Below are positions 10,492 through 37,454 of a stretch of DNA of 64,000 nt, piece after piece (positions within the stretch are counted from its first letter, which is position 1; each line of letters starts with the position of its first letter). The position numbers and the translations under genes were made by a program. Below the pieces are notes generated by a model. The model was given only the letters and a program-made list of their open reading frames with translations. It did not search any database and was not told the DNA's origin. Origin of the DNA: Thermodesulfobacteriota bacterium (GTDB taxonomy: Bacteria; Desulfobacterota_D; UBA1144; Nemesobacterales; JAJCZQ01); NCBI GenBank assembly GCA_965215275.1, contig OZ244044.1, positions 1,888,001 through 1,952,000 of the forward strand. The letters are read 5' to 3'.

Positions 10492-10521
10492 GATCCAGTT
10501 GAAGTTCTGAGGTATGAATGA
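10492..10521 (+). pseudogene. 3' remnant of a LolC/E permease gene
   Basis: Encodes DPVEVLRYE*, a typical LolC/E C-terminus; stop overlaps the lolD start (ATGA); MITE end lies 19 bp upstream. Confidence 0.65.
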
Positions 10522-11201
10522 TGAAAAACGTATTTGAGGTCGATGGTATTTACAAGACCTTTTCAAATAAGAAAAATAAAGTCGAAGTTTTAAAGGGAAT
10601 AACCCTTAATATACGCGATGGTGAAACGTTCGGTATACAGGGAGTATCAGGGGCCGGCAAGAGCACTTTACTGCATATACTGGGAACTTTAGAGAAACCA
10701 ACGGAGGGCAGGGTTCTGTTCGATGGGGTAGACGTCTTTAAGCATGATGACAAAGACCTGTCACGTATCAGGAACGAGAAGATAGGGTTCGTATTTTTGT
10801 ACCCCTATCTTCTTCCGGACCTAAATGCCTTGGAAAATGTTATGTTACACTGTTTGGCGAACGGAATGGAAAATAAAACAGCAAAGGAAAGGGCCTTGGC
10901 CATGTTGGAAAGGGTCGGTTTAGCAAATAAATCAAGCCATAAGCCAAGTGAACTGTCAGGTGGTGAACAGCAAAGAGTTGTAATTGCAAGGTCTGTTGTT
11001 TTAGGTCAAAAAGTAGTGCTTGCAGATGAACCGGTAGGTAACCTGGACTATAAAACAAAGATGAGTATAGTCGACCTCTTTTTAGGATTGAACGAGGAAA
11101 AAGGCATTACGTTCGTGATAATTACCTATAGCTCCAGGATATTTGACAGACTGAGCAGAAGGGCAATACTGTCGGATGGGAAAATAGTCGATGTTAACTA
11201 A
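10518..11201 (+). CDS. lolD: LolD-like ABC ATPase, degenerate
   Basis: GVSGAGKST, LSGGEQQRV and LADEP present, but Q-loop (FVFLYPY) and H-loop (IITY) substituted. Confidence 0.7.
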   Translation: MMKNVFEVDGIYKTFSNKKNKVEVLKGITLNIRDGETFGIQGVSGAGKSTLLHILGTLEKPTEGRVLFDGVDVFKHDDKDLSRIRNEKIGFVFLYPYLLPDLNALENVMLHCLANGMENKTAKERALAMLERVGLANKSSHKPSELSGGEQQRVVIARSVVLGQKVVLADEPVGNLDYKTKMSIVDLFLGLNEEKGITFVIITYSSRIFDRLSRRAILSDGKIVDVN

Positions 11202-11266
11202 AATTTATAGTGTTATTAAGTTCTTTCTCGCTTTTGTCACTAAAGCATATAATTCCTTTCGGATCA

Positions 11267-11383
11267 GGGGAACGACTGAGAGAATTAGAACAATATATTG
11301 CTAAAGCAAAAGAACAATACAAGGAAGCGACCCATGACTTTTACGGTTATATGAGGAAGCAATTGCAGACTTCGATAAAGTAG
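11267..11383 (+). pseudogene. 3' fragment of a TPR paralog
   Basis: Reads GERLRELEQYIAKAKEQYKEATHDFYGYMRKQLQTSIK*, the C-terminus shared by the TPR family. Confidence 0.75.
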
Positions 11384-11715
11384 TAGAGATCGACCCGCAA
11401 GATATAAACTACTGTTACAGATGGATAGCAAATTCGGACAAGAGAAATAACTGAGAGAGATAGAACAAGATAAAGCCGCTGCAGGTTTAGAGCGTGCCGG
11501 CAGATTGCGGAAAAAAAGATATTTCGAAGAAGTTCGCTTAGTGTATACAGAAAATACTTTATGAACTCCTTAGCAGAGGTAACTGGCTGATCGGAGTATT
11601 AAATCCCGATCTTTTAGTTATGGTAAAAGAGTTCAAATTTTTTCAGACGATATAAACCTTCTGCAATTTGTACTGTATAATAGTCAGTAAAGGATACAAC
11701 TTTCAGATAATAAAC

Positions 11716-12556
11716 ATGGACAGATCAAATACCTTACCAGAACCAAGAGATGCAAAAGGATACTTTGAACGCGGAAAAGACTTTTTGAACAAAGGAGAGA
11801 TTCTAAAAGCCATTGATGATCTAGATGAGGCAGTCCACCTTAATCCCCAATTTGCAATAGCTTACTATCATAGAGGGCTTGCCAAAAATGAACTTGGACA
11901 ATATAAGAAAGCGATCGAGGACTTTGATAAAGCAATAGGGAGCAATTTCCCCCCCCCCTCGAGATACAGAAATCTACTACCGCAGAGGGCTTGCCAAATA
12001 TAAACTTGGGCAATACAGAGAAGCAATTAAGGAGTTTGACAAACTAATAGAGGTCTATCCGCAATTAATAAGAAGTTACCATCTCAGAGGGATTTTCAAA
12101 AAAGCACTTGGTCAACACAATGAAGCACTTAAAGACTTTGGCAAGGTCATAGAGATTAATCCGAAATTCACAAGAGACTACTATCATAAAGGGCTTGTCA
12201 AAAATGAACTTGGACAATACAAGGAAGCGGTCAAGTACTTTGACAAAACAATAAAGTTCTCACGATTTCCAAGAACTTGCCATCAAAGAGGGCGTGCCAA
12301 ATACAAACTTGGTCAATACAATGAAGCACTTAAAGATCTTGACGAAGCAATAGAGATTAATCCACAATTAACAGAAACATACTATGACAGAGGGTGTGCC
12401 AAATATAAACTTGGTCAATACAGAGAAGCGACCCATGACTTTTATCGTTATATGAGGAAGCGATTTTGCAAGATACAAAATCTTGCTATTACAAGGGTGA
12501 TAGCAAATTTGGGGAATTATATAGGAAAGTTGACAAAATCCCATAACTCACTTTAA
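11716..12556 (+). pseudogene. TPR protein A, one frameshift at C10 tract 11949-11958; 3' end runs into a MITE
   Basis: With C9 the frame continues without stops through further TPR repeats and EATHDFYRYMRKR to TAA at 12554-12556 (translated by hand). Confidence 0.85.
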
Positions 12557-12957
12557 ATAGTTAACTTCTTTTATAAAAGGATTTACTTTAGAGGTTACTA
12601 CTGATTTAAACCTCTTATTCAGTTCTTCTTTAGGTGGTTTTTTTAAGTCGTTTGTGCGGGATTAGTTCCATTTTTAAAAACATCATTGATGCTTTATCTA
12701 TTGTTTGTTGTTTTTCTTTTTTTTGCTTTTAATTTTTTCATTATAAAACAAATAACTATTAAATATGATCAAGACTCCTCCATACTGTATTATCATTACT
12801 TAATTCTTCAAAGATAATAATTTTTCTTAACATACTGCTAAAAAGAGCATCCAATCGGTCTTGTGTGTCTGTTTTAACAACCATCATTTAACTTGAACGA
12901 AAATTCACCTATATACTTCTCAAATTGCTATTTTGTCAACTTTTCTATATAATTCCC
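12511..12957 (-). mobile_element. IS1595-derived MITE, family A copy 2
   Basis: TIRs ggggaattatataggaaagttgacaaaat / attttgtcaacttttctatataattccc; minus strand encodes transposase-like tail VKTDTQDRLDALFSSMLRKIIIFEEL. Confidence 0.8.
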
Positions 12958-13341
12958 ATAATTTTACTTATCTGTTAAATCCCTTGAAAGTTTCAAACTT
13001 GAAACTCCTTTAAGATTTGTTGTTAACAAGTAAACAGAGATAAGCCAAATCTGGAGTGGTAATTTGCTTTGCTCTAATATCGTCCCCTGTCTGATACTAA
13101 ATCTTTTTCTGCAATCCTTAATATTACCATAATATCAATTAGTCTTTTTGATTCTTTGGGTAATTAAGTATATATTCCCCTTAAATATCAAGATACTTAC
13201 TAAGGCATTAAATATATATAAAAGAGATTAATATAGGTAAACCTCTTTCAGCTATTCATCCTGTATTGGGAATAATATGACTCTAGCGGTGACCTGAAAC
13301 TTCTATTAAATGGTAAAGAATACACCTTTCGGAGAATAAAC

Positions 13342-14585
13342 ATGGACAGATCAAATACCTTATCAGAACCAAAGGATGCAAAAGGATACTTTGAACGCGG
13401 AAACGCGTTTTTGGACAAAGGAGAAGTCTTAAAAGCTATTGATGATCTGGATGAGGCGATTCATCTCAATCCCCAATTTGCAAGAGCTTACTTTAATAGA
13501 GGGCTTGCCAAAAATGAACTTGGACGATACAAGGAATCGATTGAGGATTTTTATAAAGCAATAGGGACCAATCCCCCCCCCTCCCCCATCAAGATGCAGG
13601 GTTTTACTATTGTAGAGCTGAATATTGTACAGGGCGAGAGCCTGTCAAAAACGAACCTAGGGAAACGATCAAAGACCTTGACAAAGTAATAGAGGTCTAT
13701 CCCCAATTTGCAAGAGCTTACCAACGTAGAGGGTTTGCCAATTATAAACTTGGGCAATACAGAGAGGCGATCAAGGACTTTGACAAAGTAATAGAGGTCT
13801 ATCCCCAATTTGCAAGTGCTTACTATCGTAGAGGACTTGCAAATTATGAACTTAGGCAATACAGAGAGGCGATCAAGGACTTTGGCAAAGCAATAGAGAT
13901 CTATCCCTATCCGCACCTTATAAGCCTTAACTATCAAAGAGGACTTACCAAAAATGAATTTGGGCAATACGAGAAAGCAACCAAAGACTTTGATGAGTCA
14001 AAATCCTACTATGACAGAGGGTGTGCTAAATGCAGGCTTGGGCAATACAAGAAAGCGATCGAATATTTTGACAAATCAATAGAGACCAACCCGAAATTAT
14101 CAGAAGACTACTTTACGAAAAAGTATGCCAAAAACAGACTTAAATACTACAAGTACATAATTACAGAAAATTACTATAACAGAGGACTTGCTAAAGTCAG
14201 GCTTATGCAATATAAAGAAGCGGTCGAAGACTTTGACAAGGCAATAGAGATCAATCCGCAATTAACAATAGCTTATTATAACAGAGGACTTGCTAAAGTC
14301 AGGCTTATGCAATATAAAGAAGCGGTCGAAGACTTTGACAAGGCAATAGAAATCAAACCGCAATTGGTAATAGCTTACAATGACAGAGGGTCTGCCAAAT
14401 ACGAACTTGGACAATATAAAGAAGCGGTCGAAGACTTTGACAAAGCAATAGAGATCAATCCGCAATTAACAATAGCTTACAATAACAGAGGACTTGCTAA
14501 AGTCAGACTTAGACAATACAAAGAAGCGACCCATGACTTTTACGGTTATATGAGGAAGCGACTGCAGACTTTGATAAAATGGTAG
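13342..14585 (+). pseudogene. TPR protein B, one frameshift at C9 tract 13573-13581
   Basis: Adding one C joins ORF 13342 to ORF 14205 through a stop-free TPR frame (414 aa). Confidence 0.88.
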
Positions 14586-14898
14586 AACCGACCTGCAAGA
14601 TGCAAAATCCTATACTGACAGAGAATTTGCTAAAACCCGACTTAGGCAATACAAAGAAGCAATTAAGGAATTTGACAAGGCAGTAGAAATTGATCCAGAT
14701 GAAGATCACAACTGCTATGAACGGGCAATTATGAAACTATGCCTGAGTGAATAGGAAAGTGCCAAAGCAGACCTGATCATTATTATAAAATGGTTTAATA
14801 TTGCCTGCTTTTTCCACGATGAGCATAAAAGCGTCACTGAATTAGAGAAAAGATTTAATGTTATACTGCAGGCAGAGATCAAGACGCTGCTGACCTGA
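14586..14898 (+). pseudogene. Decayed TPR repeat and C-terminal domain relic
   Basis: Fragments QYKEAIKEFDKAVEIDP and AKADLI...FHDEHKSVTELEKRFNVILQAEIKTLLT* with frame disruptions. Confidence 0.5.
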
Positions 14899-15207
14899 TA
14901 AGATGAAGATTGAAGATCAGGCGCAAAAGGATGCTTTGAACGCTGAGATGATAATTAAACAAAACCGGTGATTTTTAACCTCTTGAAAATTCCAAAGACA
15001 CCTTTACTTATCCCGCAAGTCTTTCACAGCTGAGGAGTTGCTGAAATAACCTTGTACAAGTTGTCAGCACGGATAAATAAAGCAGTCAGTTAAATGCAGC
15101 ATAAAGACTAAAAGATCTGAAAGTTAAGCATCTGACCTAACTTAGCTGCTGAAGGTATATGGCCTTAATTTATCTGTTAAAAAAGCTCTTTATGGTTTAT
15201 TATATTG

Positions 15208-15452
15208 GGGGACTATATACTTAATTATCCAAAGAGATCTAACTACTTGTTATCATTAACTTTTAATTTATTTTTAAGTTTTCTTGCCTTGATAATAGCT
15301 TTTTGTTTAGCAAATATAGCATCCACTACCTCTTCCATAGAAACTTTTACAGGCTGTATTAATTTTGGTTTTATTCCCATTTATCCCCCTCTCTCTTAAT
15401 ACTTAATATATCCCCTTTTTTGATTTTATGGGGAATTAAGTATATAGTCCCC
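15208..15452. mobile_element. 245-bp IS1595-derived MITE carrying only a small ORF
   Basis: Perfect 19-bp TIRs ggggactatatacttaatt / aattaagtatatagtcccc; interior homologous to the 3' end of the IS at 39900-40970. Confidence 0.88.
15243..15380 (-). CDS. 45-aa basic IS1595 accessory protein (MGIKPKLIQPVKVSMEEVVDAIFAKQK...)
   Basis: Intact ORF with AGAGGGGG RBS inside the MITE; frameshifted homolog at 40793. Confidence 0.6.
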   Translation of the reverse strand: MGIKPKLIQPVKVSMEEVVDAIFAKQKAIIKARKLKNKLKVNDNK

Positions 15453-15787
15453 TTAATTTTTGCCACTTCTTAAGTTTGTTTATAAGATTTGGGTTGTGAA
15501 TAAATTCTTACGGGTTCTCAATTCCTCACTGACTATTTTTGTAATTTTTCTACATTCATGTCCATCGTCAAAAAATACTCTGTTGCATCGTTATTTTGCT
15601 TAGTTTGTTTTTTATAAACTTGCAGTTCTCTATATGACTCAAAAGTCATTTTCTTGTATACAACAAATTTGCCAATTATAGATTGAGAAGTATCAGAGTC
15701 ATAACCCCAATTATGATTTTTATAATTTGACAATTTGTTATAGTTTAAGGAAAATTTATCTTCAATACAATTTACTTGGAGATAAAG

Positions 15788-16102
15788 ATGTTAGCTGTAA
15801 TCAAAACCTGCGGGAAGCAGTATATGGTTAAACCCGGCGATGTAATTAATGTTGATAAGATACAAGGGGAGCATGGGTCCGAAGTACAGTTCAGCGAAGT
15901 TCTCATGTTATCAGATGGAGAAGGAAGTGTGAAAGTAGGAACTCCATTTGTTGATGGCGCACTGGTTAATGGTATAATCCTTGGAGAGAAGAAGGGAGAG
16001 AAGTTAACCATATTTAAGTTCAGAAGAAGAAAAGGTTATAGAAAAAAAACGGGACACAGACAAAGATATACATCAGTTAAAATAAATAGTATTAACGGCT
16101 AA
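15788..16102 (+). CDS. rplU: 50S ribosomal protein L21
   Basis: [12 protein letters not shown]...[17 protein letters not shown]. Confidence 0.97.
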
Positions 16103-16116
16103 ACCGGGAGGTTCTT

Positions 16117-16371
16117 ATGTCTACTAAAAAGGGTGGCGGCAGCACAAGCAACGGAAGAGACTCTGCCGGTAAAAGGTTAGGAGTTAAGAAATTCGGAGGT
16201 CAATCCGTTAGAGCCGGTAATATAATTGTGAGGCAGCGCGGTACGAAAGTTCATCCCGGTCCGAACGTCGGACTTGGCAAGGACTACACGCTTTTTGCAC
16301 TGATCGATGGTTCCGTTAAGTTCGAAAGATTCAAAAAAAATAAAACTAAAGTAAGTGTTTATCCCAATTAA
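16117..16371 (+). CDS. rpmA: 50S ribosomal protein L27
   Basis: [24 protein letters not shown]. Confidence 0.98.
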
Positions 16372-16488
16372 GTTCCCCGTTTTTCACTTATTCCTCTACA
16401 AATTTAACCATTAGCGTATTCTTTCATTGTACGTACAATGTATAATATAATTAGTGTCAGGGTTTATCTGATACTAACGTGGGATTTT

Positions 16489-18042
16489 ATGAATACCAGA
16501 TCGGCTAAAGGTTATATTAAATTTTCGTTTTCATTGTTCATCACATTTTTGACATGTGTGATTATAGCTGTTGGCGTGGCTTTGTTTCACAGCCAGTACT
16601 TTGCCAATAAGATCATTGAATATAAGTCCTCCGAAATATCACAGGAGTTCAATAACTCTGACTCCCTTTCTCTTACTGCAAGGAATATGCTTCATAAGAG
16701 AGACGATATAAGCTACTTGAATATATTCAACGAAGAGGGTGTGTTACAAGAAAACTTTAGCATCGGCGATGCTGTCGGGACCAAAGAGGTTGTTTTAAAG
16801 TTATTTGACGGCCAATTTATAGGTTTGGGGTTAAGAACCGACGTGGTCCCACTCGTGGATTCCTATGCACTGTCTTGGAGTCTTATTATTGGTATAATTT
16901 CGGCTATTATTTTGCTCTTTATCATTTCAATCAGGGATTCAAAGGAGACCAAGCCGTTAAAGGAGTTTGAAAAAGCGATGGAAAGCATTTCTCAAGGTGA
17001 TTACACTGTCAGATTGGGCGGTTCTTTTCTTGGTCAAGATGGTAGTAAAAAAGATTATAACAGCACTTATATGATCTTTAATAAGATGGCGAGACATCTA
17101 TACGTAAAATACAGAGAGCGGAATATCTCTTATGTCCCGTCTATGGATGTACCACTTGAACTGAAAGAGAATAATGACCTTGATAATGGTGTGTCTGATA
17201 GCAGTTCAGAATTAGAATATAAATTAGAAGATGAACCAGAAGACACGAGTGCCGGACTTATTGGCCAGGAGTTTTTATTGGATGAAGGGAATAAGGACGA
17301 GGGATCTGAGGTGAAAGTGAAATTGGAGACTTCAGATATATCTACAGAACAAGATAACAATAATAACGGTGAGGTAATGGACCAAGTGGAAAAGACAGAA
17401 GACGACCTTGATGGACAAGAAATCCAAGAAGTCCCGAAAGAACCCGAGACTAGCGTGGAAGAAACAGTAAGACGTTCGTTTTTCGTCTCGGCAGTTGCCA
17501 AGTCGCATGAAGCACGTTCTGACTTGAGACATGTGAGCGTCCTTGTTGTTATAACAGAAGGTCTTGAGAATCTGCCCTGTGAAGAATATATGCAAAGTTT
17601 TTCAGAAATGATCGTAAGTTATGGAGGGAAGATAGACCATTCATTGCAAAGTGTGTTTGTTGCTGTTTTTAATCCTTCCGATGATAACTATCCATGTATG
17701 AGACCAATGTGTGCGGCGGTGGAAATATTAACAAAGCTTGCAGATACTGCGATAAGAAGCAAATCTGAAAACATGAAAACCGTGACCGGCAAAGTCGGTA
17801 TAAGCACAAAATCACTGTCCGATGTTTCAGATTCGCTTGAAGATTTGATAGAAGATGCCAAGCAGATCTGTGAGATTACACAGACTTGGAAGCTTTCAAT
17901 TTCCTCTGAGTTGTACGAAGAGGTAAAAGATTTTGTTGAAGCAAGGAAGTACACGGTTGATGGCAAGGATATTTATTCAGTTAAAGGTGTTGAGCATGGA
18001 GTGGTCCGTCCTGAAGGGAGACCTGAAAAAACCGACATGTGA
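16489..18042 (+). CDS. Membrane protein: 2 TM, HAMP, acidic linker, degenerate class III nucleotide cyclase-like domain
   Basis: TM segments; KPLKEFEKAMESISQGDYTVRL HAMP; cyclase-like pattern VSVLVV...YGGKIDH...VAVFN...KVGIS. Confidence 0.55.
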   Translation: MNTRSAKGYIKFSFSLFITFLTCVIIAVGVALFHSQYFANKIIEYKSSEISQEFNNSDSLSLTARNMLHKRDDISYLNIFNEEGVLQENFSIGDAVGTKEVVLKLFDGQFIGLGLRTDVVPLVDSYALSWSLIIGIISAIILLFIISIRDSKETKPLKEFEKAMESISQGDYTVRLGGSFLGQDGSKKDYNSTYMIFNKMARHLYVKYRERNISYVPSMDVPLELKENNDLDNGVSDSSSELEYKLEDEPEDTSAGLIGQEFLLDEGNKDEGSEVKVKLETSDISTEQDNNNNGEVMDQVEKTEDDLDGQEIQEVPKEPETSVEETVRRSFFVSAVAKSHEARSDLRHVSVLVVITEGLENLPCEEYMQSFSEMIVSYGGKIDHSLQSVFVAVFNPSDDNYPCMRPMCAAVEILTKLADTAIRSKSENMKTVTGKVGISTKSLSDVSDSLEDLIEDAKQICEITQTWKLSISSELYEEVKDFVEARKYTVDGKDIYSVKGVEHGVVRPEGRPEKTDM

Positions 18043-18069
18043 TCCCATCAGTGTGTTTGATCTTAAGCA

Positions 18070-19131
18070 ATGCAAATGCAAGTCCAAAACATTAAAGAGT
18101 TATCGCCGAACAAGCTTGAAGAAGCCATTCTGGATATTGGAGAAAAATCCTACCGTGCCGGTCAAATTGGCAGATGGCTTTATCAAAAATACATAAGTAA
18201 CTATGACGATATGACGGATTTATCCGTCGGGTTGAGAAACAAGCTACGAAATGTTCTTCCCATAAATAGAACCCTGCATCTGGTAAAGGAGCAACTGTCC
18301 CGGGATGGAACGATCAAATATCTTTTTATGCTCAACGACGGCAACAGGATTGAATCAGTCTTAATTCCTGATAAAAAAAGATTTACACTGTGTGTTTCTT
18401 CACAGGTTGGTTGTGCCCTTGGGTGTAAATTTTGCCTTACTGCAACCGTGAGAAGGATAAGGAATCTGAACACTGCAGAGATCATTGATCAAGTGTTGTA
18501 CGTGAATTCGGTTAGAAGTAAGCCGATTACAAACATTGTCTTTATGGGAATGGGAGAACCTCTGGATAATCTGGATAACCTTGTTAGCTCAATTCAAATA
18601 TTAACGGATAAAAGGTGCTTTGGAATATCTCCGAGGAAAATTACCGTGTCCACTTCTGGACTGGTTGATCAGATAGAGGAACTTGGAAAGAGGGTAAGCG
18701 TGAACTTATCCATTTCATTAAATGCGTCCAACGATGGAACAAGAAGCGATATAATGCCTGTAAACAAAAAATACCCGATCCGGCAGTTACTTACTGCTGC
18801 TGTTAAATATCCTTTGCCAAAGAGAAAACTGCTGACATTTGAGTATGTTTTACTTAAAGGCGTTAATGACTCCGATTTTGATGCGTCGGCACTTGCGGTC
18901 CTGTTAAAAGGTTTAAACGTTAAGGTTAACCTTATTCCCTATAACGAATCTCACCCTCTTCCTTACAATAGCCCTGACGCAGACAGAGTATTGAACTTTC
19001 AGAAAATACTTATGAATTCCCATATTAATGCAAAGATCAGGAAAAACAGAGGTAGAGATATTCTAGCTGCCTGCGGACAGTTGGCTTCGGGATATTCTCA
19101 TAACACTGTGTTTGAGAGGAACTGTTATTAA
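18070..19131 (+). CDS. rlmN: Dual-specificity RNA methyltransferase RlmN
   Basis: CVSSQVGCALGCKFC, MGMGEPLDN, DILAACGQL. Confidence 0.96.
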   Translation: MQMQVQNIKELSPNKLEEAILDIGEKSYRAGQIGRWLYQKYISNYDDMTDLSVGLRNKLRNVLPINRTLHLVKEQLSRDGTIKYLFMLNDGNRIESVLIPDKKRFTLCVSSQVGCALGCKFCLTATVRRIRNLNTAEIIDQVLYVNSVRSKPITNIVFMGMGEPLDNLDNLVSSIQILTDKRCFGISPRKITVSTSGLVDQIEELGKRVSVNLSISLNASNDGTRSDIMPVNKKYPIRQLLTAAVKYPLPKRKLLTFEYVLLKGVNDSDFDASALAVLLKGLNVKVNLIPYNESHPLPYNSPDADRVLNFQKILMNSHINAKIRKNRGRDILAACGQLASGYSHNTVFERNCY

Positions 19132-19146
19132 TTACTGACGGACGCC

Positions 19147-21795
19147 ATGCAAACAATGACTGGAAGTGAAATAAGAACCCTTTTTTTGGATTATTTTAAA
19201 AGCAAGGGACATATGGAAGTAAGTAGTTCTTCTTTAATTCCAAAGGACGACCCAACGCTTCTTTTTGTCAACGCGGGTATGGTGCAATTTAAAAATGTGT
19301 TCCTTGGAACGGAGAAAAGAGATTATAAACGTGCAGTTTCATCTCAAAAATGCGTGCGTGCAGGTGGAAAGCATAATGACCTTGACAACGTGGGATACAC
19401 TTCCCGTCATCACACATTTTTTGAAATGCTGGGCAATTTTTCATTTGGAGATTATTTTAAGAAAGAGGTCATTGAGTTTGGATGGGAACTTATTACAAGT
19501 GTATATGGGATAGCGGAAGATAAGCTATGGGTAACTGTATTTAAAGAAGACGATGAAGCATACGACCTTTGGAAGAACCATATAGGCATCAGTGACGGCA
19601 GACTGGTAAAGATGGGGGAGAGTGACAATTTCTGGTCAATGGCTGATACCGGACCGTGCGGTCCCTGCTCTGAGATCATTGTTGATCAAGGTGAGAGATT
19701 TGGCTGCGGAAAAAAAGATTGTAAAGTCGGATGTGATTGTGACAGATATCTGGAAATATGGAACTTGGTATTTATGCAGTTTTATAGAGATGATGCTGGC
19801 AATTTAACCAGACTTCCTAATCCGAGCATTGACACGGGGATGGGACTAGAGAGAATAGCGGCTGTGCTTCAGGCCGTAAAAAGCAATTACGAGACCGATC
19901 TTCTTCTTGAGATTATAGAAGATATCTCCGCGTTTTGTGGAACTGAGTACAAAAGAGGAACCAGTGAGAGTGATATTTCTATGAGGGTTATTGCAGATCA
20001 CTCAAGAGCGGTGAATTTTCTGATTTCCGATGGAGTATTTCCCTCTAACGAGGGTAGAGGATATGTTCTCAGACGAATACTGCGCAGAGCTGTAAGGCAT
20101 GCAAAAATGCTCGGGGTTGACAAACCGTTTCTTTACAAAACACTACCCAGCGTAAACAGGATATTCGGAGATGTCTATCCTGAACTTATAAAACGAGCGG
20201 ATTTTGTTTCACGAGTTGTTAGAACTGAAGAAGAGAGATTTCTGGAGACCATTGACCGTGGGCTTGAGCTTCTTGAGACTGAGGTAGCTGAACTTCAGGA
20301 AAGCAGTATCTTATCTGGAAAAGTAGCATTCAGGCTATACGACACTTACGGCTTTCCCTATGATCTGACAGAGGATATTACAAAAAGCAAAGGAATAAAA
20401 ATTGACTCTGCTGAGTTTAACCTGGCAATGAAGAAGCAGCGTGAACAATCAAGACAATCATTGAGGAAGACCGATGAGGGATTTACTGCCGGTTTATACG
20501 GAGACTTTGTCGCAGGAGGTTTGAGTGTTGATTTCACGGGCTATGAGCAGTTGGAGGGTCAGGCCCTGATTATGATGATAATAAATAACAATCAAGCTGT
20601 CGATAGTGCTTCTGAAGGAGACCTAGTGGAATTGATAACCGACTCAACGCCGTTTTATGGCGAATCCGGAGGACAGATAGGAGATAAAGGCAGGATAGAG
20701 TCCGGCAGGTTCAAGGGTGAAGTAGTTGACACGAAAAAACCGTTTACAGATCTTATAGTTCATAAAGTTAAGATAAAGAGAGGCACAGTATGGGTCGGTG
20801 ATAGGGTGAGTCTTATAGTGGACAAGGATTTCAGATCGGGAGTAAGTGCTCATCACACCTCCACGCATATACTTCACGCCACTCTTAAGGAAATACTTGG
20901 TGACCATGTAAACCAGGCAGGGTCGCTCGTAACCCCAGATAGACTGCGTTTTGATTTCAGCCATTATTCAGGGATAGAAAGTAAGGATTTAAGAAAGATA
21001 GAAGAGTTGATGAACGAGAGAGTGAGAACAGATGATGCCGTTGAAGTTCGTAGTAATATTCCATACGATGAGGCTATAAAGGATGGAGCCACGGCGATTT
21101 TTGAGGAAAAATATGGCGACAAGGTAAGAATTGTATCCATTGGAGATTATAGTAAGGAGCTTTGTGGTGGCACGCATTTATGCAGTTCAGGGGAGTCGGG
21201 ATTTATAAAGGTGATTAGTGAGGCGGCATCTTCAGCTGGAGTTAGGCGAATTGAAGCTGTAGCATCTGAATCTGCCGTAAAACTTTTCCATTACTACAAT
21301 AAAATAATTGAGAATGTAAGGTCTGAATTACAAGTTCCACATTCGCAGCTGATAAAGGGACTGAAAATGGTTGTTGATGAGAATGAGAGTCTGGTAAAGA
21401 AGTTGAAGAAATTTAAAGACCGTACTTTTTACAACGAGGTGGAAAGTTTTATAAAAAATGTTAAAAAAGTCAATGGTATAAAACTGCTCATCCAGGATAT
21501 AGAAGGTGCATCCGCGACGGATTTGAGAACCGTCTGGGACAGTGTTAAGCCAAAGATCTGTTCTGGTGTAACGGTCCTTGCGAGCAAAAATTCCGAGAAA
21601 GTTTTCCTGCTGGTTGGTGTTACAGAGGACCTTCTGGAAAAATATCACGCTGGTAATATTGTCAGGGAATTATCACGGATCGTTGGGGGGAAAGGAGGTG
21701 GAAAACCTGACCTTGCACAAGGTGGGGGAAGTATTACTTGTAAAATGAACGAAGCATTGGCGGCCGCTGGGGAAATAATAGAGGGAACATTTTAG
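19147..21795 (+). CDS. alaS: Alanine--tRNA ligase
   Basis: DDPTLLFVNAGM, HHTFFEMLGNFSFGDYFK, ELCGGTH, GGKGGG. Confidence 0.98.
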   Translation: MQTMTGSEIRTLFLDYFKSKGHMEVSSSSLIPKDDPTLLFVNAGMVQFKNVFLGTEKRDYKRAVSSQKCVRAGGKHNDLDNVGYTSRHHTFFEMLGNFSFGDYFKKEVIEFGWELITSVYGIAEDKLWVTVFKEDDEAYDLWKNHIGISDGRLVKMGESDNFWSMADTGPCGPCSEIIVDQGERFGCGKKDCKVGCDCDRYLEIWNLVFMQFYRDDAGNLTRLPNPSIDTGMGLERIAAVLQAVKSNYETDLLLEIIEDISAFCGTEYKRGTSESDISMRVIADHSRAVNFLISDGVFPSNEGRGYVLRRILRRAVRHAKMLGVDKPFLYKTLPSVNRIFGDVYPELIKRADFVSRVVRTEEERFLETIDRGLELLETEVAELQESSILSGKVAFRLYDTYGFPYDLTEDITKSKGIKIDSAEFNLAMKKQREQSRQSLRKTDEGFTAGLYGDFVAGGLSVDFTGYEQLEGQALIMMIINNNQAVDSASEGDLVELITDSTPFYGESGGQIGDKGRIESGRFKGEVVDTKKPFTDLIVHKVKIKRGTVWVGDRVSLIVDKDFRSGVSAHHTSTHILHATLKEILGDHVNQAGSLVTPDRLRFDFSHYSGIESKDLRKIEELMNERVRTDDAVEVRSNIPYDEAIKDGATAIFEEKYGDKVRIVSIGDYSKELCGGTHLCSSGESGFIKVISEAASSAGVRRIEAVASESAVKLFHYYNKIIENVRSELQVPHSQLIKGLKMVVDENESLVKKLKKFKDRTFYNEVESFIKNVKKVNGIKLLIQDIEGASATDLRTVWDSVKPKICSGVTVLASKNSEKVFLLVGVTEDLLEKYHAGNIVRELSRIVGGKGGGKPDLAQGGGSITCKMNEALAAAGEIIEGTF

Positions 21796-21837
21796 GCAAG
21801 ATATGGCGGAATGCTCAGTAAGTCCGAACAATCCCTG

Positions 21838-22740
21838 TTATAGGCTAACGTCTTTTATCCCTTGTTTACTTAAAACATCTTTAACTTTTTTTAAAGCTGC
21901 GATTTTAATTTGCCGTACTCGTTCGCGCGATATACCGTATCTCTTACCAATTTCCTCAAGTGTCAATGGATTATCGCTGAGAACATTATGTTTAATCACG
22001 TATTTTTCTCTTTTCTTTAGTGGCTTGAGTATTTCGTTGATATTTTCTCTGATAGCTGATTCAATCTGATTTTTGGCAATTAAATCTTCCTGATTATATT
22101 TTTCATCTTTCAGATAGTTTATAAAACTGGTTTGCTGGCCGTCTCCTATTTTGGCATCAAGGGAAAGGTCTTTATGGGTCATCCTCTGATCCATTTTTAC
22201 TACTTCTTCTACCTTTACCCCGAGTTGTTTTGCAATCTTTGAATAATCATCATCATTTATTACATTTGTTTCCTTACCAAGCGTGTTCTTAGTTGATCTT
22301 AACTTATAAAATAACTTTCGCTGTGCTTGATTTGTTCCTAATTTGACCAAGCTCCATGATTGTATAAGAAAATTATGTATATATGCTCTGATCCACCATA
22401 CTGCGTAGGAGATCAGTTTATATCCCTTTGTCGGATCAAATCCTTTTACGGCTTGCATGAGCCCTATGTTCCCTTCTTGTATTATGTCCATAATATTTAC
22501 GCCGTAGTTCTTGTACTCATGAGCAATTTTTACAACGAACTTGAGGTTGCAAGAGACAAGTTTTCTGGCGGCTTCAAGATCGCCTTCTGTCTTGTATCTC
22601 ATAGCTAACTCATATTCTTCTTTTCTGCTCAGAATTGGGTTGTTACTTATATCGGCTATGTATCTTTCAAGTGAATTAGTAGTTGTTGGAAGATTTGCTG
22701 AATAACTTTTTGTTTCTTCTTTTTCCCTGCTTTTCATCAT
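21838..22740 (-). CDS. rpoH: RNA polymerase sigma factor, RpoH/sigma32 family
   Basis: QEGNIGLM, YAVWWIRAYIH, RpoH-box-like QRKLFYKLR, SRERVRQI. Confidence 0.85.
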   Translation of the reverse strand: MMKSREKEETKSYSANLPTTTNSLERYIADISNNPILSRKEEYELAMRYKTEGDLEAARKLVSCNLKFVVKIAHEYKNYGVNIMDIIQEGNIGLMQAVKGFDPTKGYKLISYAVWWIRAYIHNFLIQSWSLVKLGTNQAQRKLFYKLRSTKNTLGKETNVINDDDYSKIAKQLGVKVEEVVKMDQRMTHKDLSLDAKIGDGQQTSFINYLKDEKYNQEDLIAKNQIESAIRENINEILKPLKKREKYVIKHNVLSDNPLTLEEIGKRYGISRERVRQIKIAALKKVKDVLSKQGIKDVSL

Positions 22741-22771
22741 GATGAATTTTAGATTCTTATCATAATCGTTT

Positions 22772-24064
22772 GGGAATTATATACAATAGTGACGAAGCCT
22801 GGATTATTTCTTGTTTTTTGAACGTTCAGCAATGTGTTTCTTTACACCCTTCTTTTTAACATTGACAGGCTGGAGGATAGCTTTTGCTAACTTTTGCGGA
22901 GTTGTATAAATAGCAAACGGATGCTCTTTCTCTTCTTCTGTTGGTTCATAACTGCCTGGTAAGATCTCTGTTGTTTTTTTCTTATTCGTCATTGTAAGTT
23001 TATTTTATTTTTTTGGTCTGTTTTTTATCGTATAACATTATTCATCTTACCTTATCAGTTCTTTATAAGGCAAGATTTTTCCATACATTGCCTTTGCTAT
23101 TGTTCCCATCTGATCTTTCGTATCCAGTCTTCTTATATTATGCCTTCCCGCAAACTCATTTACATAACGATTTAAATGCTTTTTACTCATTCTGTGGAAT
23201 GTGCAGTTATATCCTCTTTTTAACATTGCCCAGAATGATACCACTCCGTTTACATATGCCTGCTCTTTAACATATTCCCTTACACTATGATTCACGCTTT
23301 CATGGTCATAAGGCAGCCCTGTATAGCTTTTATGATCATCGGTATATATTTTTACTCCCCGACCGACCTTCTTTACTATAAAAACCCTGTATTTCCTCTT
23401 TACTCCGTTCACCAACAAGTTGTGCTATCACTCTGTTTGTCTCTCCGTTCTTCATTCCTGTAACAATTGACTTCCCACCAGGCCCTCGTGTATGACTACG
23501 CTTGTCCTTATGTTTATTTCTCTCCTTTCCACCTGTAAACACTTTCAGTTCTTCTCTGTTCCATGCCTCTCTGATCCGATGCGATAAATGCCATGCTGTT
23601 CTCTGGGTAATATCCAGATCTCAATGCAGTTTCATACTTGATACTCCCTTTAATGACGTGGTAAATAGATATATAGCTACTGCCCAAACCTGATACTTGA
23701 TATTAGAGGACTGCATAACTGTCCTGATACTTACACTAAACCATTTTGCACATCCTTTTTCCCTGAACCTGTACGACATGGTCTTATGACCTATTCCAGT
23801 TTGAACGTTTCTTGTCCCACAATACGGACAAACGGGTTCCTTTCCCCACCTCTGTTCGGAAAACCATTTCTCTGCAACGGCATCGTCAGGAAATTTCTTG
23901 AATAAATTAACTAACGATATCCCTTTCCTGTATGATTTCCCATGTGCTTTGTTTGACATATAACTTCCTCCCAATTATTTAACTTTCTTACCTCTAATAC
24001 TGACAAAACTTTAGCTTTGTCAACTGTTTATTTGGAGACTTCGTCACTATTGCATATAATCCCC
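22772..24064 (-). mobile_element. IS1595-family element, defective, copy 1
   Basis: 29-bp imperfect TIRs ggg(g/a)attatatacaatagtgacgaag(t/c)ct; broken transposase plus 62-aa ORF 22804-22992. Confidence 0.93.
22804..22992 (-). CDS. 62-aa basic IS1595 accessory protein
   Basis: Intact and identical in all three IS copies, directly downstream of the transposase. Confidence 0.6.
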   Translation of the reverse strand: MTNKKKTTEILPGSYEPTEEEKEHPFAIYTTPQKLAKAILQPVNVKKKGVKKHIAERSKNKK

Positions 24065-24317
24065 ATTTTTATATAATTAAAAAGTCGGGCTTTTTAATCC
24101 TCTAATCAACCAGCTACTTCTGCTACGGAGTTCGTAAATGTTCTCCGTATACATTAAATAAACTTCTCAGAAATCTCTTTTTTCAGCAATCTGTCGGCAC
24201 GCTCTAAACCTGCAATGGCTTTACCTTGTTCTAGTTCTCTCAGTCGTTCTCCCAATCCGAATTTTCTATTCCCTCTGTAACAGTAGGTTTCTACATCTAC
24301 ATCTTGCAGGTCGGTCT

Positions 24318-25526
24318 CTACCCTTTTATCAAAGCCTGCAATCGCTTCCTCATATAACTGTAAAAGTCCTGGGTCGCTTCTTTGTATTGTCTAAGTCTGG
24401 CTTTGGCAAGTCCTCTGTTATAATAAGTTTTTGCATCTCGCGGATCTATCTCTATTGCTTTGTCATAGTCCTTAATCGCTTCCGTGTATTGACCAAGTCC
24501 GCCTTTGGTATTTCCTCTGTTATTGTAAGTTTCTGCAATCGCTTCCTTGTATTGATTAAAGTTTTTTTCGGCAAAAAATCTGTTGTTAAAGTAATTTCCT
24601 GCTAATTGAGGATCAAGTTCTGTGGTTTTGTCAAAGTCTTTAATTGCTTCTCTGTATCGTCTAATGTAGGTTTTGGCAAGTCCTCTGTTATAGTAAAGGT
24701 TTGCAATCGCTTTCTTGTATCTACCAAGGTCTTTTTTGGCAAACTTGCTGTTAAAGTAATCTCCTGCGAATTGCAAGTCGGTCTCTATTGCTTTGTCAAA
24801 GTCTTCGACCGCTTCCGCATATTGACCAAGTTCATGTTTGGCAAGCCCTCTATTATAGCAAACTCTTATAAACTGTGGATAGACATCTATTGCTTTGTCA
24901 AAGTCTTCGACCGCTTCCGCATACTGACCAAGTTCATGTTTGGCAAGCCCTCTATTATAGCAAGGTTTTGCAAATCGCGGGTCGATCTCTATTGCTTTGT
25001 CAAAGTCCTTAATTGCTTCCTTGTATTGACCAAGTCTGTTTCTGGCAAGCCCTCTGTTATGGTAATATCTTGCAAATTTCGGATGGACTTCTATTGCTCT
25101 GTCAAAGTCCTTAATTGCTTCTCTGAATTGCCCAAGCCTAAAATTACCAAGCCCTCTACTGTAGTAGAGTTCTGTATATTGTGGGGGGAGAGATTTAGTC
25201 CCTACTGCTTTGTAAAAGTCCTTAATCGCTTCCTTGTATTGACCAAGTTTGTTTCTAGTAAACCCTCTATTATAGTAAGCTCTTACGAATTGCGGGTCGA
25301 TCTCTATTGCTTTGTTAAAATCCTTGACCGCTTCCGCATACTGACCAAGCCTGTTTCTGGCAAGCCCTCTGTTATGGTAAGCTCTTGCAAATTGGGGATC
25401 AAGATGGATCGCCTCATCTAGATCATAAACAGCTTTTACGACCTCTCCTTTGTTCAAAAAGTCGTTTCCGCGTTCAAAGTATCCTTTTGCATCCTTTGGT
25501 TCTAATAATGTATTTGATTTACCCAT
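24318..25526 (-). CDS. TPR protein D, in frame (short G6 tract 25183-25188)
   Basis: Canonical 34-aa TPR repeats YYNRGLA...LGQY.EA..DFDKAIEIDP. Confidence 0.93.
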   Translation of the reverse strand: MGKSNTLLEPKDAKGYFERGNDFLNKGEVVKAVYDLDEAIHLDPQFARAYHNRGLARNRLGQYAEAVKDFNKAIEIDPQFVRAYYNRGFTRNKLGQYKEAIKDFYKAVGTKSLPPQYTELYYSRGLGNFRLGQFREAIKDFDRAIEVHPKFARYYHNRGLARNRLGQYKEAIKDFDKAIEIDPRFAKPCYNRGLAKHELGQYAEAVEDFDKAIDVYPQFIRVCYNRGLAKHELGQYAEAVEDFDKAIETDLQFAGDYFNSKFAKKDLGRYKKAIANLYYNRGLAKTYIRRYREAIKDFDKTTELDPQLAGNYFNNRFFAEKNFNQYKEAIAETYNNRGNTKGGLGQYTEAIKDYDKAIEIDPRDAKTYYNRGLAKARLRQYKEATQDFYSYMRKRLQALIKG

Positions 25527-25865
25527 GTTTATTATCAGAAAGTTGGATTCTTTACCAACTACTATACAGTAACAATTGCAGAAGGTTTATATAGTCTGAA
25601 AAAATTTGAACTCTTTTACCATAATTAAAAAATCGGGCTTTTTGATACTTCAATCAGCCAGTTACCTCTGCTACGGAGTTCGTAAACGTTCTCCGTATAC
25701 ATTAAACAAACTTCTTATAAATCTCTTTTTTCAGCAATCTGTCGGCACGCTCTAAACCTGCAATGGTTTTACCTTGTTCTAGTTCTCTCAGTCGTTCTCC
25801 CAATCCGAATTTTCTATTCCCTCTGTAACAGTAGGTTTCTACATCTACATCTTGCAGGTCGGTCT

Positions 25866-28800
25866 CTACCCTTTTATCAAAGCCTGCAATCGCTTCCTCA
25901 TATAACTGTAAAAGTCCTGGGTCGCTTCTTTGTATTGTCTAAGTCTGGCTTTGGCAAGTCCTCTGTTAAAATAAGTTTTTGCATCTCGCGGATATATCTC
26001 TATTGCTTTGTCATAGTCCTTGATCGCTTCTTTATATTGCATAAGCCTGACTTTGGCAAGCCCTCTGTTATTGTAAGTTTCTGCAATCGCTTCCTTGTAT
26101 TTACCAAGGTCTTTTTTGGCAAACTTGTTGTTAAAGTAATCTCCTGCGAATTGCAGGTTGATCTCTATTGCTTTGGCAAAGTCTTTAATTGCTTCTCTGT
26201 ATCGCCTAATGTAGGTTTTGGCAAGTCCTCTGTTATAGTAAGCTTCTGCAATCGCTTTCTTGTATTTACCAAGGTCTTTTTTGGCAAACTTGTTGTTAAA
26301 GTAATCTCCTGCGAATTGCAGGTTGGTCTCTATTGCTTTGTCAAAATCCCTGATCGCTTCCGCATATTGACCAAGTTCATGTTTGGCAAGCCCTCTATTA
26401 TAGCAAACTCTTATAAACTGTGGATAGACATCTATTGCTTTGTCAAAATCCTTGATTGCTTCCGCATATTGACCAAGCTTATGTTTGGCAAGCCCTCTGT
26501 TATAGTAAGTTTTTGCAAATCGTGGGCTGATCTCTATGTCTTTATCAAAATCCTTGATCGCTTCCGTGTATTGACCAAGGCTGTTTTTAACACGTCCTCT
26601 GTTATAGTAAGCTCTCGCAAATTTCGGATAGATATCTACTACTTTGTCAAAGTCCTTGACTGCTTCCTCATACTGACCAAGTTTAACTTTACCAACCCCT
26701 CTGCTGTAGTAAAGTTCTGTATATTGGTGGGGGGGGGGGTATTGGTCCTTATTGCTTTGTAAAAATCTTGGGTCGCTTCCTTGTATTGACAAAGTTTGTT
26801 TCTAGTAAGCCCTCTGTTATAGTAAGCTCTTACGAATTGCGGGTCGATTTCTATTGCTTTGTTAAAATCCCTGACCGCTTCCGCATACTGCCCAAGCCTT
26901 TTTCTGGCAAGCCCTCTGTTATAGTAAGCTCTTACGAATTGCGGGTCGATTTCTATTGCTTTGTTAAAATCCCTGACCGCTTCCCCATACTGCCCAAGCC
27001 TAAAATTACCAAGCCCTCTGTTATAGTAATTTTCTACAATTGCTTTCTGGTATTGCCCAAGCCTTTTTCTGGCAAGCCCTCTGTTATAGTAAGCTCTTGC
27101 AAATTGCGGGTCGATTTCTATGGTTTTGTCAAAATCCCTGACCGCTTCCGCATATTGACCAATCCTGTTTCTGGCAAGCCCTCTGTTATAATAAGCTCTT
27201 ACGAATTGCGGAGACATCTCTATAGCTTTGTTAAAATCCTTGACCGCTTGCGCATATTGACCAATCCTGTTTCTGGCAAGCCCTCTGCTGTAGTGGAGTT
27301 CTATTTCTTGTGAGAGGTGAAATTTGCTCCCTATTGCTTTGTCAAACTCCTTAATTGCTTCCTTATATTGACCAAATTTGTTTTTGGTAAGTCCTCTTTC
27401 ATAACAAATCCAATAGATACGTTCTGCAAATCCCGGATTGAGTTTTATTGCTTTATTAAGATCCTCAATTGCTTCCTCATATTGACCAAGGCTGCTTTTG
27501 GCAAGCCACCTGTTATAATAAACGCAAGGATAGAATATATCCTCAAATTGGGGATTGATCTGTATTGCTTTGTCAAAATCCTTGATCGCTTCCTTGTATT
27601 GTTCTTTTGCCTTAACAGTATCTTGTTCTAATCTTCTCAGTTGTTCCCCTAGTCCTAATTTGCTATCCCCTCTGTCATAGTAGGATTTTGCATCTTGTGG
27701 ATTGATCCTTATTGCTTCGTCAAAATCTTTAATCGCTTCCTCGTATTGCTCAGATTTTAATTTGGTATTTCCTCTGCTATAGTAACTTTCTGCATTTTGC
27801 GGACCGATCTCTATCACTTTATCAAAGTCCTTGATCGCTTGTTGGTAGCATCCAAAGTTGTATTTTGTAATTCCACTGCTGTAGTAGACTTCTGCATTTT
27901 GCGGACCGATCTCTGCCACTTTATCAAAGTCTTCAATAGCTTCTTCTAAATTTTCATCCCAGTTCTCAACCTCCTGCTTACATGATCCAAACAAAGCTCT
28001 GGCAAGTCCTCTATTATAGTAGGCTTCTTCATCTTGTGGGTTTATCTCTATTGCTTTGCTAAAGTCTTTGATCGCTTCCTCATATTGACCAAATAAAATT
28101 CTGACACGCCCTCTGTTACAACGGGATTCCGTGTCTTGAGGAGCCACCGTTATTAATTCGTCAAAATCTTCGATCACTTCTCCGTGTAACTCAAGCAAGT
28201 TCTTGGTAACCTTTCTACCAGCGTGGGCAAACAGATATTTCGGGTCGACTTCTATAACTTTGTCAAAATCCTCAATCGCTTCTTTGAGTCTCCCAAGGCT
28301 GCCTTTGGCACGTCCTCTTTCATAATAATAGTGAAAATCCACAAATTGTGGTTTGTTTTTTATGACTTTATCAAAGTCCTTGACCGCTTCTTTGTATTGC
28401 CCAAGTTCGTTTCTAGCAAGCCCTCTGTTATAGTAAGCGCCTATTAATTGCGGATTGCTCCCTATCGCTTTGTTAAAGTCCTTAACCGCTTCTCTGTATT
28501 GTTTAATGTAGGTTTTGGCAAGTCCCCTGCGATTCCAAGACTCTGCATCTTTCGGGTTGATCTCTATGGCTTTGTTAAAATCCTCAATTGCTTCTTTACA
28601 TTGCAAAAGTTGGGTTTTAGCAAATCCTCTGTCAGTGTAGTTTTTTGCATCTTTCGGGTTGATCTCTATGGCTTTGTTAAAATATTCAATTGCTTTATCG
28701 TATTGCTCAAGTTTGACCGTGGCAATCCCTCTGTCAGTATATGCTCTTGCAAATTGGGGATCAAGATGGATCGCCTCATCTAGATCATAAACAGCTTTTA

Positions 28801-28888
28801 CGACCTCTCCTTTGTTCAAAAAGTCGTTTCCGCGTTCAAAGTATCCTTTTGCATCCTCTGGTTCTGATAAGGTATTTGATCTGCCCAT
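25866..28888 (-). pseudogene. TPR protein C, one frameshift at G11 tract 26729-26739
   Basis: ORFs 26639-28888 and 25866-26792 join into a 1007-aa TPR protein if the tract is 12 long (9 also restores frame). Confidence 0.88.
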
Positions 28889-29020
28889 GTTCTCCGGAAG
28901 TTTGACTCTTTACCACCTAATACAAGTTTCAGGTCACCGTTAGAGTCATATTATCCCAATACAGGATGAATAGCTGAAAGAAACTTACCTAGATTACTCT
29001 GTATATACATTTAATGCATT

Positions 29021-30313
29021 GGGGATTATATACAATAGTGACGAAGTCTCCAAATAAACAGTTGACAAAGCTAAAGTTTTGTCAGTATTAGAGGTAAGAA
29101 AGTTAAATAATTGGGAGGAAGTTATATGTCAAACAAAGCACATGGGAAATCATACAGGAAAGGGATATCGTTAGTTAATTTATTCAAGAAATTTCCTGAC
29201 GATGCCGTTGCAGAGAAATGGTTTTCCGAACAGAGGTGGGGAAAGGAACCCGTTTGTCCGTATTGTGGGACAAGAAACGTTCAAACTGGAATAGGTCATA
29301 AGACCATGTCGTACAGGTTCAGGGAAAAAGGATGTGCAAAATGGTTTAGTGTAAGTATCAGGACAGTTATGCAGTCCTCTAATATCAAGTATCAGGTTTG
29401 GGCAGTAGCTATATATCTATTTACCACGTCATTAAAGGGAGTATCAAGTATGAAACTGCATTGAGATCTGGATATTACCCAGAGAACAGCATGGCATTTA
29501 TCGCATCGGATCAGAGAGGCATGGAACAGAGAAGAACTGAAAGTGTTTACAGGTGGAAAGGAGAGAAATAAACATAAGGACAAGCGTAGTCATACACGAG
29601 GGCCTGGTGGGAAGTCAATTGTTACAGGAATGAAGAACGGAGAGACAAACAGAGTGATAGCACAACTTGTTGGTGAACGGAGTAAAGAGGAAATACAGGG
29701 TTTTTATAGTAAAGAAGGTCGGTCGGGGAGTAAAAATATATACCGATGATCATAAAAGCTATACAGGGCTGCCTTATGACCATGAAAGCGTGAATCATAG
29801 TGTAAGGGAATATGTTAAAGAGCAGGCATATGTAAACGGAGTGGTATCATTCTGGGCAATGTTAAAAAGAGGATATAACTGCACATTCCACAGAATGAGT
29901 AAAAAGCATTTAAATCGTTATGTAAATGAGTTTGCGGGAAGGCATAATATAAGAAGACTGGATACGAAAGATCAGATGGGAACAATAGCAAAGGCAATGT
30001 ATGGAAAAATCTTGCCTTATAAAGAACTGATAAGGTAAGATGAATAATGTTATACGATAAAAAACAGACCAAAAAAATAAAATAAACTTACAATGACGAA
30101 TAAGAAAAAAACAACAGAGATCTTACCAGGCAGTTATGAACCAACAGAAGAAGAGAAAGAGCATCCGTTTGCTATTTATACAACTCCGCAAAAGTTAGCA
30201 AAAGCTATCCTCCAGCCTGTCAATGTTAAAAAGAAGGGTGTAAAGAAACACATTGCTGAACGTTCAAAAAACAAGAAATAATCCAGGCTTCGTCACTATT
30301 GTATATAATTCCC
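29021..30313 (+). mobile_element. IS1595-family element, defective, copy 2
   Basis: Same TIRs and identical ORF translations as copies 1 and 3; inverted relative to copy 1. Confidence 0.93.
30093..30281 (+). CDS. 62-aa basic IS1595 accessory protein
   Basis: Identical to 22804-22992. Confidence 0.6.
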   Translation: MTNKKKTTEILPGSYEPTEEEKEHPFAIYTTPQKLAKAILQPVNVKKKGVKKHIAERSKNKK

Positions 30314-30517
30314 AAACGATTAATACTTGTCTAGTGTAATCTTTAAAGTATAACACCAGATAATTGTTTATGAAAATTATGTATTTTTGTCCACATAAAA
30401 GTTTTATTTGATGAGAAAAACCCATAAACTTGATGGGCATGCTTGTCCTCAAATCAACTATCAAAGTTTCTTGACTGACTACTTTTTAACATTTAAACTA
30501 ATCCACTTTGACGCAAG

Positions 30518-35656: not shown

Positions 35657-35980
35657 CTATTGCTCTATAAAGGACTAATTTATCCGTTCGTATAGATTAT
35701 ATTTGTTAAATATATGGTAAGATAAGTTCCTATTTATCCTACTATATATACAAGTTCCTTGTTTTTTATAAGTCCTGATAATTTAAGTTTAGGGTATTAC
35801 ATTTACAGATGTAATACCACCACATATTTTATGCCCAGAGTATTTTTTCAAGTATGATCTGATGTAATGGCAAGATGTGGTAGCTCATCAGTCAAGAAAT
35901 GGTTGTCTGGAGAGCATAAAATACAATTTTCCAGTGAGGATTAGACAATGGACAGGAGTCTCCTCTGCGTTTTATATATT

Positions 35981-37274: not shown

Positions 37275-37454
37275 AAAATAGATGACATTAATAGTTATAA
37301 TGTATATAGTTTCCCTTTATTATATTTCGTTATCTGTATTGTTTTATTTCTTGCGTAGGTTGTTGGCCTGTTTTTGTCAATCCCGTTACGGTACTAATCA
37401 GATACTACTATCACTATTTACGGTTAAGCATAATAATACACCGACTTTGTTAAA

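Follow-up and report, generated by a model that had tools for sequence, protein, structure and literature searches.

Poly-C tracts at a shared inter-repeat turn as probable frame switches of a TPR paralog family in a Thermodesulfobacteriota bacterium

We analyzed a stretch of 64,000 nucleotides (the window) from a Thermodesulfobacteriota bacterium, positions 1888001-1952000 of the single contig of a 1.99-Mb genome (42.5% GC, completeness 99.87%). Among the matches listed, the nearest alanyl-tRNA synthetases with a named source were those of a Deltaproteobacteria MAG (67%) and of Thermodesulfobacteriota MAGs (51-57%); a 16S search against plasmids reached no more than about 79% identity, with alphaproteobacteria. 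The organism may belong to Dadabacteria (Desulfobacterota_D). The window contains members of a paralogous family of tetratricopeptide repeat (TPR) genes in which runs of 9-11 C lie at one and the same turn between repeats. We think it probable that these runs are slipped-strand frame switches, presumably reversible, of basic, predicted-cytoplasmic TPR binders. The mechanism has long been known; its target class and the lineage are new, and switching itself is unproven. Three of five hallmarks of contingency loci were found: a homopolymer that sets the reading frame, over-representation outside core genes, and purifying selection downstream of the tract. Feature positions from 10518 to 50151 are in window numbering; 19539, 20737, 31545, 837669, 1068992, 1750466, 1964984 and 1975150 are in genome numbering.

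A TPR family with C tracts at one turn

The sequence-only reading of the window had described four paralogous TPR genes with similar beginnings and ends, three of them broken by a single-base frameshift at a C tract in the same inter-repeat turn. The four runs are present as described (Table 1), and the common N- and C-terminal motifs were confirmed. DNA alignment placed the tracts at one turn and gave the same in-frame lengths as had been proposed, 9 for gene A, 10 for gene B, and 9 or 12 for gene C. The frames downstream of the three frameshifting tracts are free of stop codons over the lengths listed in Table 1 and finish with the family helix. The current product of gene A consists of two TPR repeats followed by a frameshifted tail. 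Because the tract of gene C follows codon 716, it would not turn the gene on or off but act as a length switch, giving 749 aa out of frame and about 1000 aa in frame; the post-tract frame carries the family C-terminal helix. An internal turn of gene C aligns at the DNA level as a tract-free version of the same sequence, and its 5' part resembles a tract-less paralog whose end is like that of FRG-TPR proteins. Gene D is likely locked on by its interrupted tract.

A search with the 77-residue N-terminus found 10 close copies in this genome (G000), together with a progenitor at 837669 and one more distant copy. Eight of the 10 carry a 9-11 C run at the turn, and the length of the run sets the frame: the copies at 19539, 20737, 31545 and 1068992 are in frame, and genes A, B and C and the copy at 1964984 are out of frame. 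The remaining two are the interrupted, in-frame gene D and the copy at 1750466, which is without the turn. We compared four relatives of the same family (G001-G004), of which G001 belongs to the same genus. G001 and G002 have only the progenitor, as a single tract-less gene, and G003 and G004 have no match to the family N-terminus. Among the genomes compared, only this one shows an expansion of the family, which goes back to one acidic progenitor also present in two relatives. None of 46 partly overlapping TPR loci of relatives has a run of at least 7 in any TPR-like open reading frame (ORF), so the tract device is specific to this genome among those examined. The TPR loci show marks of tandem duplication, and several include a co-copied ABC ATPase gene. 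Outside these genomes, two protein searches for the same genes gave identities of at most 42% and at most 52%, with no conspecific protein or genome among the matches, and metagenome contigs, scanned twice by pattern for versions of these genes with a different tract length, yielded no stretch.

We propose that the turn after repeat 2 was where a single tract first arose, which may then have spread through duplication and repeat shuffling. Replication would add a base to a run or remove one, and each cell would thereby express its own combination of full-length TPR proteins. Slippage would toggle most members between a two-repeat stub and a superhelix of 7-11 repeats, and eight such switches could give up to 256 states. 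The likeliest driver would be conflict with phages or mobile elements, because about 19 restriction-modification sites are under the control of the same tract system, as described below.

Table 1. TPR genes, their tracts and neighboring features (window positions)
Feature	Position	Strand	Remarks
TPR gene A	11716..12556	+	out of frame at C10; product now 95 aa, stop 12003; post-tract frame 198 codons
C10 tract, gene A	11949..11958	+	turn following repeat 2
TPR gene B	13342..14585	+	out of frame; product now 115 aa; post-tract frame 333 codons
C9 tract, gene B	13573..13581 (to 13587 with following T and C5)	+	
TPR gene C	25866..28888	-	long chimeric member; product now 749 aa, stop 26639; post-tract frame 286 codons
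C11 tract, gene C (G11 on forward strand)	26729..26739	-	
TPR gene D	24318..25526	-	in frame, 402 aa; interrupted tract
C6 remnant in interrupted tract TCTCTCCCCCC of gene D (G6 on forward strand)	25183..25188	-	
ABC-transporter ATPase gene	10518..11201	+	co-duplicated with several TPR loci of the genome
Remnant, 3' end of earlier TPR copy	11258..11472	+	upstream region of gene A; tandem-duplication scar
IS1595-family element	22763..24065	-	inverted, 99.9% identical to the copy across genes C and D
IS1595-family element	29020..30322	+	brackets genes C and D; a stop and a frame change split its transposase

Tracts across the genome and its relatives

The genome holds 78, 0, 6, 68, 32 and 18 G/C runs of lengths 6, 7, 8, 9, 10 and 11, respectively. 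Geometric extrapolation predicts about 12, 1.7, 0.26, 0.04 and 0.006 runs for lengths 7 to 11. The tracts are therefore not due to chance, as the counts (68 runs of length 9 against 0.26 expected) far exceed the expectation. There are 139 runs of at least 8 and 133 of at least 9, with lengths from 8 to 26. The absence of long runs from housekeeping genes, noted earlier for the window, was borne out (longest run at most 6 in 12 of 12 named housekeeping genes); three further long runs had been overlooked there (positions 41700, 42689 and 49812).

The tract system is not specific to TPR genes, which account for 8 of the 139 tracts. Assigned by hand from Pfam matches, clusters and motifs, the others fall into surface-protein (85), restriction-modification (19), glycan-modifying (9) and lipoprotein (4) genes, a hypothetical family (3) and an unclassified rest (11); thus 128 of the 139 lie in six classes. 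Such run lengths and target genes are typical of slipped-strand phase variation. The 19 restriction-modification genes or remnants comprise seven confirmed by Pfam and others assigned by cluster or motif. All 85 surface-protein tracts belong to one family of secreted proteins with an S8-protease fold and Ig repeats, in which tracts directly follow the start codons. Nine of the 50 scorable signal-peptide tracts are in frame and 41 are out of frame, 26 in one direction and 15 in the other; by eye, 38 of these 41 genes still reach their C-terminal anchor.

Several other features of the tracts were observed. Among 57 loci of S8/P-domain/Ig-repeat surface proteins, the signal-peptide tract is absent from the eight that keep both catalytic residues, His and Ser (four of these have a tract elsewhere), and present in the 49 that miss one or both. 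A pair of tracts some 70 bp apart occurs in 28 loci, and an ATG lies in between. C is on the plus strand in 109 of the 139 tracts, on both replichores, because the surface-protein genes mostly share one orientation. The run at 41700 is a coding-strand G9, in frame now, in a GT4 glycosyltransferase gene (40954-42141, minus strand). The units at 42402-42893 (plus strand) and 49620-50151 (minus strand) are paralogous pairs of a small hypothetical gene and a membrane-protein gene; the small gene carries a G9 in one unit, where it is in frame, and a G8 in the other, where it is out of frame. One more copy, at genome position 1975150, is in frame. The atlas matches are unnamed clusters.

Across 91 genomes of the order, with GC content uncontrolled, this genome had the most runs of at least 9 (133), followed by genomes with 130, 113, 75 and 53; most had fewer than 30. 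One genus of the order holds several genomes with 53-130 such runs (G011, G025, G072 and G067). One tract site, in a methylase-Mrr gene, was common to this genome and G001 at differing length, C9 versus C13 (one of 20 loci compared, of 21 tracts). In G001, G9-G10 runs before lipoprotein genes at three loci have a TTGACA box on one side and a TA-rich hexamer on the other and are likely promoter-spacer switches. G001 also has in-frame G9-G10 runs inside two conserved genes, which by their motifs are probably dnaK and an RNR-like gene; core genes avoid tracts less strictly there than in this genome.

Switching, loss, recoding and assembly error

Read support was judged from contigs of public sequencing runs rather than raw reads; in contigs minority alleles are invisible. 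The tracts at 13573 and 26729 were spanned without gap or substitution by contigs of all four runs listed, which derive from three samples of one study. A contig of depth 2.5 from another study also spans 13573 with the same C9, and may come from the same strain or from cross-contamination. The frameshifts at these two tracts are real majority alleles. Runs X4 and X5 have a one-base gap at 11947, which was rejected as a switch since it travels with paralog-matching substitutions at 11946 and 11961.

We asked whether the out-of-frame copies are alive. With substitutions only, the time since the split from the nearest paralog taken as half of pairwise dS (synonymous divergence; 0.10-0.12) and 169 of the 198 gene A codons covered, neutral decay would be expected to give 2-5 stops per out-of-frame region, and the joint chance of none in all four is about 4e-7. 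Mismatches at TPR core positions after the tract amount to 57 of 406 (14.0%) in out-of-frame copies and 66 of 518 (12.7%) in in-frame copies, and the ratio of nonsynonymous to synonymous polymorphism (pN/pS) at the core is 0.35 versus 0.26. Because the post-tract frames are stop-free and the TPR core is kept about as well as in the in-frame copies, long-dead pseudogenes seem unlikely. Nor do the out-of-frame copies form one clade: in the post-tract tree three of the four have a supported in-frame sister group (88/93, 89/93 and 98/98). The closest flank of gene A is that of an in-frame copy (90% identity), and that of gene B by identity is that of another out-of-frame copy (82% vs. 81%).

Several observations weigh against frame switching. 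No second length was found at the TPR tracts among the contigs listed (all four runs of the one study and the single contig of the other). The ratio of nonsynonymous to synonymous rates (dN/dS) was 0.82, 0.78, 0.67, 0.63 and 0.47 in the closest pairs of an in-frame and an out-of-frame copy, compared with 0.38, 0.47 and 0.50 in close in-frame pairs, which hints at relaxed selection. The first post-tract repeat of gene B has been damaged by in-frame indels (a 21-nt insertion and a short deletion), and the copy at 1964984 has lost the family start codon. In addition, slippage of the Campylobacter and Helicobacter type occurs where the MutS/MutL pathway is absent. MutS (in an open frame of 868 aa) and MutL (617 aa) are both present here, so loss of mismatch repair does not account for a high slippage rate. 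The raised dN/dS, the damage to gene B and the lost start fit copies that were partly off through their history, and they also fit recent loss. Thus the proposal of a phase-varied TPR repertoire stands as the best explanation, with its reversible switching unobserved and every tract-spanning contig at the length of the assembly. The alternative named beforehand, neutral decay of the downstream frames, is largely contradicted by the stop-free frames and the kept core, with some relaxation in pairwise dN/dS.

The strongest competitor, which we regard as unlikely, is a recent one-way loss: redundant paralogs would have a mutational hotspot in the C run, and drift would have fixed the four out-of-frame copies, which would be young pseudogenes. 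It would account for the single tract length in all spanning contigs, the higher dN/dS, the damaged repeat and the lost start. The genome is moreover rich in insertion sequences (IS), and an account of a nascent symbiont describes slippage-driven decay (PMC4948707), a precedent for such loss. However, decaying tracts should accumulate at length 7, and no run of that length occurs genome-wide. The out-of-frame surface-protein genes mostly still reach their C-terminal anchor and have tracts directly after their start codons, the TPR core is conserved downstream of the tract, and MutS and MutL are intact.

Recoding, in which RNA polymerase or ribosome slippage at a fixed DNA tract gives a constant fraction of full-length product, is a much poorer candidate and very unlikely to be the explanation. 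This idea agrees with the constant tract lengths in the contigs and with the conservation of the downstream frames, but the correction needed differs among copies: gene A has one base too many and the three other out-of-frame copies one too few. Four tract-bearing copies are already in frame, tract lengths range from 8 to 26, and transcriptional slippage is known mostly on A/T runs. Least probable are homopolymer assembly errors in intact genes: the genome is a single contig, probably from long reads, the platform of the spanning runs is unrecorded, these runs may include the source of the assembly and no listed piece spans 11949, but the gap-free spans largely refute the error for two of the three tracts (13573 and 26729), the contig from the other study agrees at 13573, and such errors would neither make 133 runs of at least 9 confined to few gene classes nor put surface genes off in both directions.

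The proteins, known systems and meaning

The family consists of canonical Pfam TPR_1 repeats, expanded in number, with TPR domains only. Structure prediction folded one in-frame copy into a canonical TPR superhelix (predicted local distance difference test, pLDDT, 90), and a fold search with the same copy gave consensus TPR designs and OGT as best matches; these are generic superhelices and hold no clue to the ligand. The domain search found no effector domain fused to the TPR array, such as FRG-TPR and TIR-TPR proteins have, and PADLOC gave the family weak generic TPR matches only. Inspection of the family proteins found no N-terminal signal peptide. The genome has no FHIPEP, VirB4 or VipB match as markers of type III/flagellar, IV and VI secretion, and its export genes include one secretin, with HlyD-like matches below the cut-off. 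The link to sponge symbionts that the sequence-only reading had drawn from TPR expansions was not borne out by these proteins without signal peptides in a genome without such markers. A promoter scan was uninformative (19 sites vs. 13.3 +/- 3.6 in shuffles, none before gene A).

The family proteins have an isoelectric point (pI) of 9.4-9.7 and a net charge of +17 to +27, and the progenitor has a pI of 4.9; 15% of long ORFs are as basic as the TPR family. At groove positions 2, 5, 6, 9, 12 and 13, numbered by the TPR convention, pN/pS was 1.0-1.75 (mean 1.23) compared with 0.32 at structural positions, in a rough spanning-tree count over 62 distinct post-tract repeats, uncorrected for multiple hits or conversion. 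Such groove variation is the pattern of a binder repertoire. The in-frame proteins might bind acidic partners, either proteins or nucleic acid, via the diversified groove, a view we hold weakly. As ligands we favor, with less than even confidence, foreign proteins or nucleic acids, from phages or mobile elements; the cell's own partners, for example the co-duplicated ATPase, are a somewhat less probable choice, host molecules bound after release a less probable one again, and the chance that the family has no function is small. A bolder proposal is that the family, young and with a fixed scaffold, hypervariable basic grooves and eight independent frame switches, forms a phase-varied, combinatorial set of TPR receptors inside the cell. 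It would act as a bet-hedged library of innate sensors for proteins or nucleic acids of phages or mobile elements, with up to 256 sets of binders in a clonal population, within what may be one of the largest poly-C phasomes of a bacterium with intact mismatch repair. We put this forward tentatively and consider it doubtful.

Other TPR genes and neighbors of the family were also noted. FRG-TPR genes at genome positions 343792-345438 and 968895-970946 have PADLOC PDC-S15 matches. FRG-TPR/TIR-TPR genes occur in G002 and G005 as well, and in G002 a TIR-TPR gene with a ThsB-like match adjoins the progenitor. At genome positions 845135-848941 (minus strand) an open frame of 1269 codons encodes a complete DNA gyrase B joined to some eight TPR repeats; it holds the only GyrB match of the genome, has a duplicated DSYTAEQIK motif at the junction, and may contain an internal start. 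The window has three near-identical IS1595 copies, the third at about 35970-37276, all with the same split transposase. The first two are identical for about 9 bp past the terminal repeat, which hints at past inversion or conversion.

Among known systems, the Cpn1054/ppp family of Chlamydia pneumoniae also has poly-C at a homologous site of its paralogs, and CPn_1054 is one of the genes that vary most. Those are inclusion-membrane-type proteins with 5' tracts; here the proteins are TPR proteins and the tract lies mid-gene in a repeat turn. FRG-TPR/TIR-TPR defense-like genes have similar TPR repeats, but they carry no tract and the switched family has no effector domain. According to the available text on the Campylobacter phasome, lengths 9 and 10 make up 53% and 26% of its tracts (PMC6321876). 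The present genome resembles it in having in-ORF G/C tracts that peak at 9-10, in its glycan-modifying and restriction-modification targets, and in non-variable homologues with shorter or interrupted tracts. It differs in its strand bias, with coding-strand C in 85 of the 104 tracts that have a long downstream frame (5% in Campylobacter), in its number of tracts, 139 in 2 Mb where that report counts 81 at most, in retaining MutS and MutL, and in targeting a TPR-only paralog family; that phasome paper mentions TPR zero times (PMC6321876). In H. pylori, an intragenic homopolymer of the TPR-family gene UM032_0224 changed to a pseudogene state in mouse-adapted derivatives, according to the part of the report available (PMC5381349). 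A TPR gene was thus inactivated by a change in tract length, but one gene is concerned there and a repertoire here. Lineage-specific, TPR-only amplification is likewise seen in the eukaryote-like repeat proteins of sponge symbionts (PMC8163846) and the TPRs of Orientia tsutsugamushi; the present family stands apart by its probable tract switching, of which the accessible accounts of those expansions contain no description, and by its lack of a signal peptide in a genome with no type III, IV or VI marker. A literature search, covering neither most subscription journals nor any supplements, found no phase-variable TPR paralog family switched at a shared turn.

Most documented phase variation concerns surface structures and methylases of pathogens that can be cultured. 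If the tracts switch, the same device would shuffle a probably cytoplasmic family of binding proteins in an uncultured, deep-branching lineage, several order-level relatives of which also have large tract counts. Annotators would label half of these TPR genes as pseudogenes or assembly errors.

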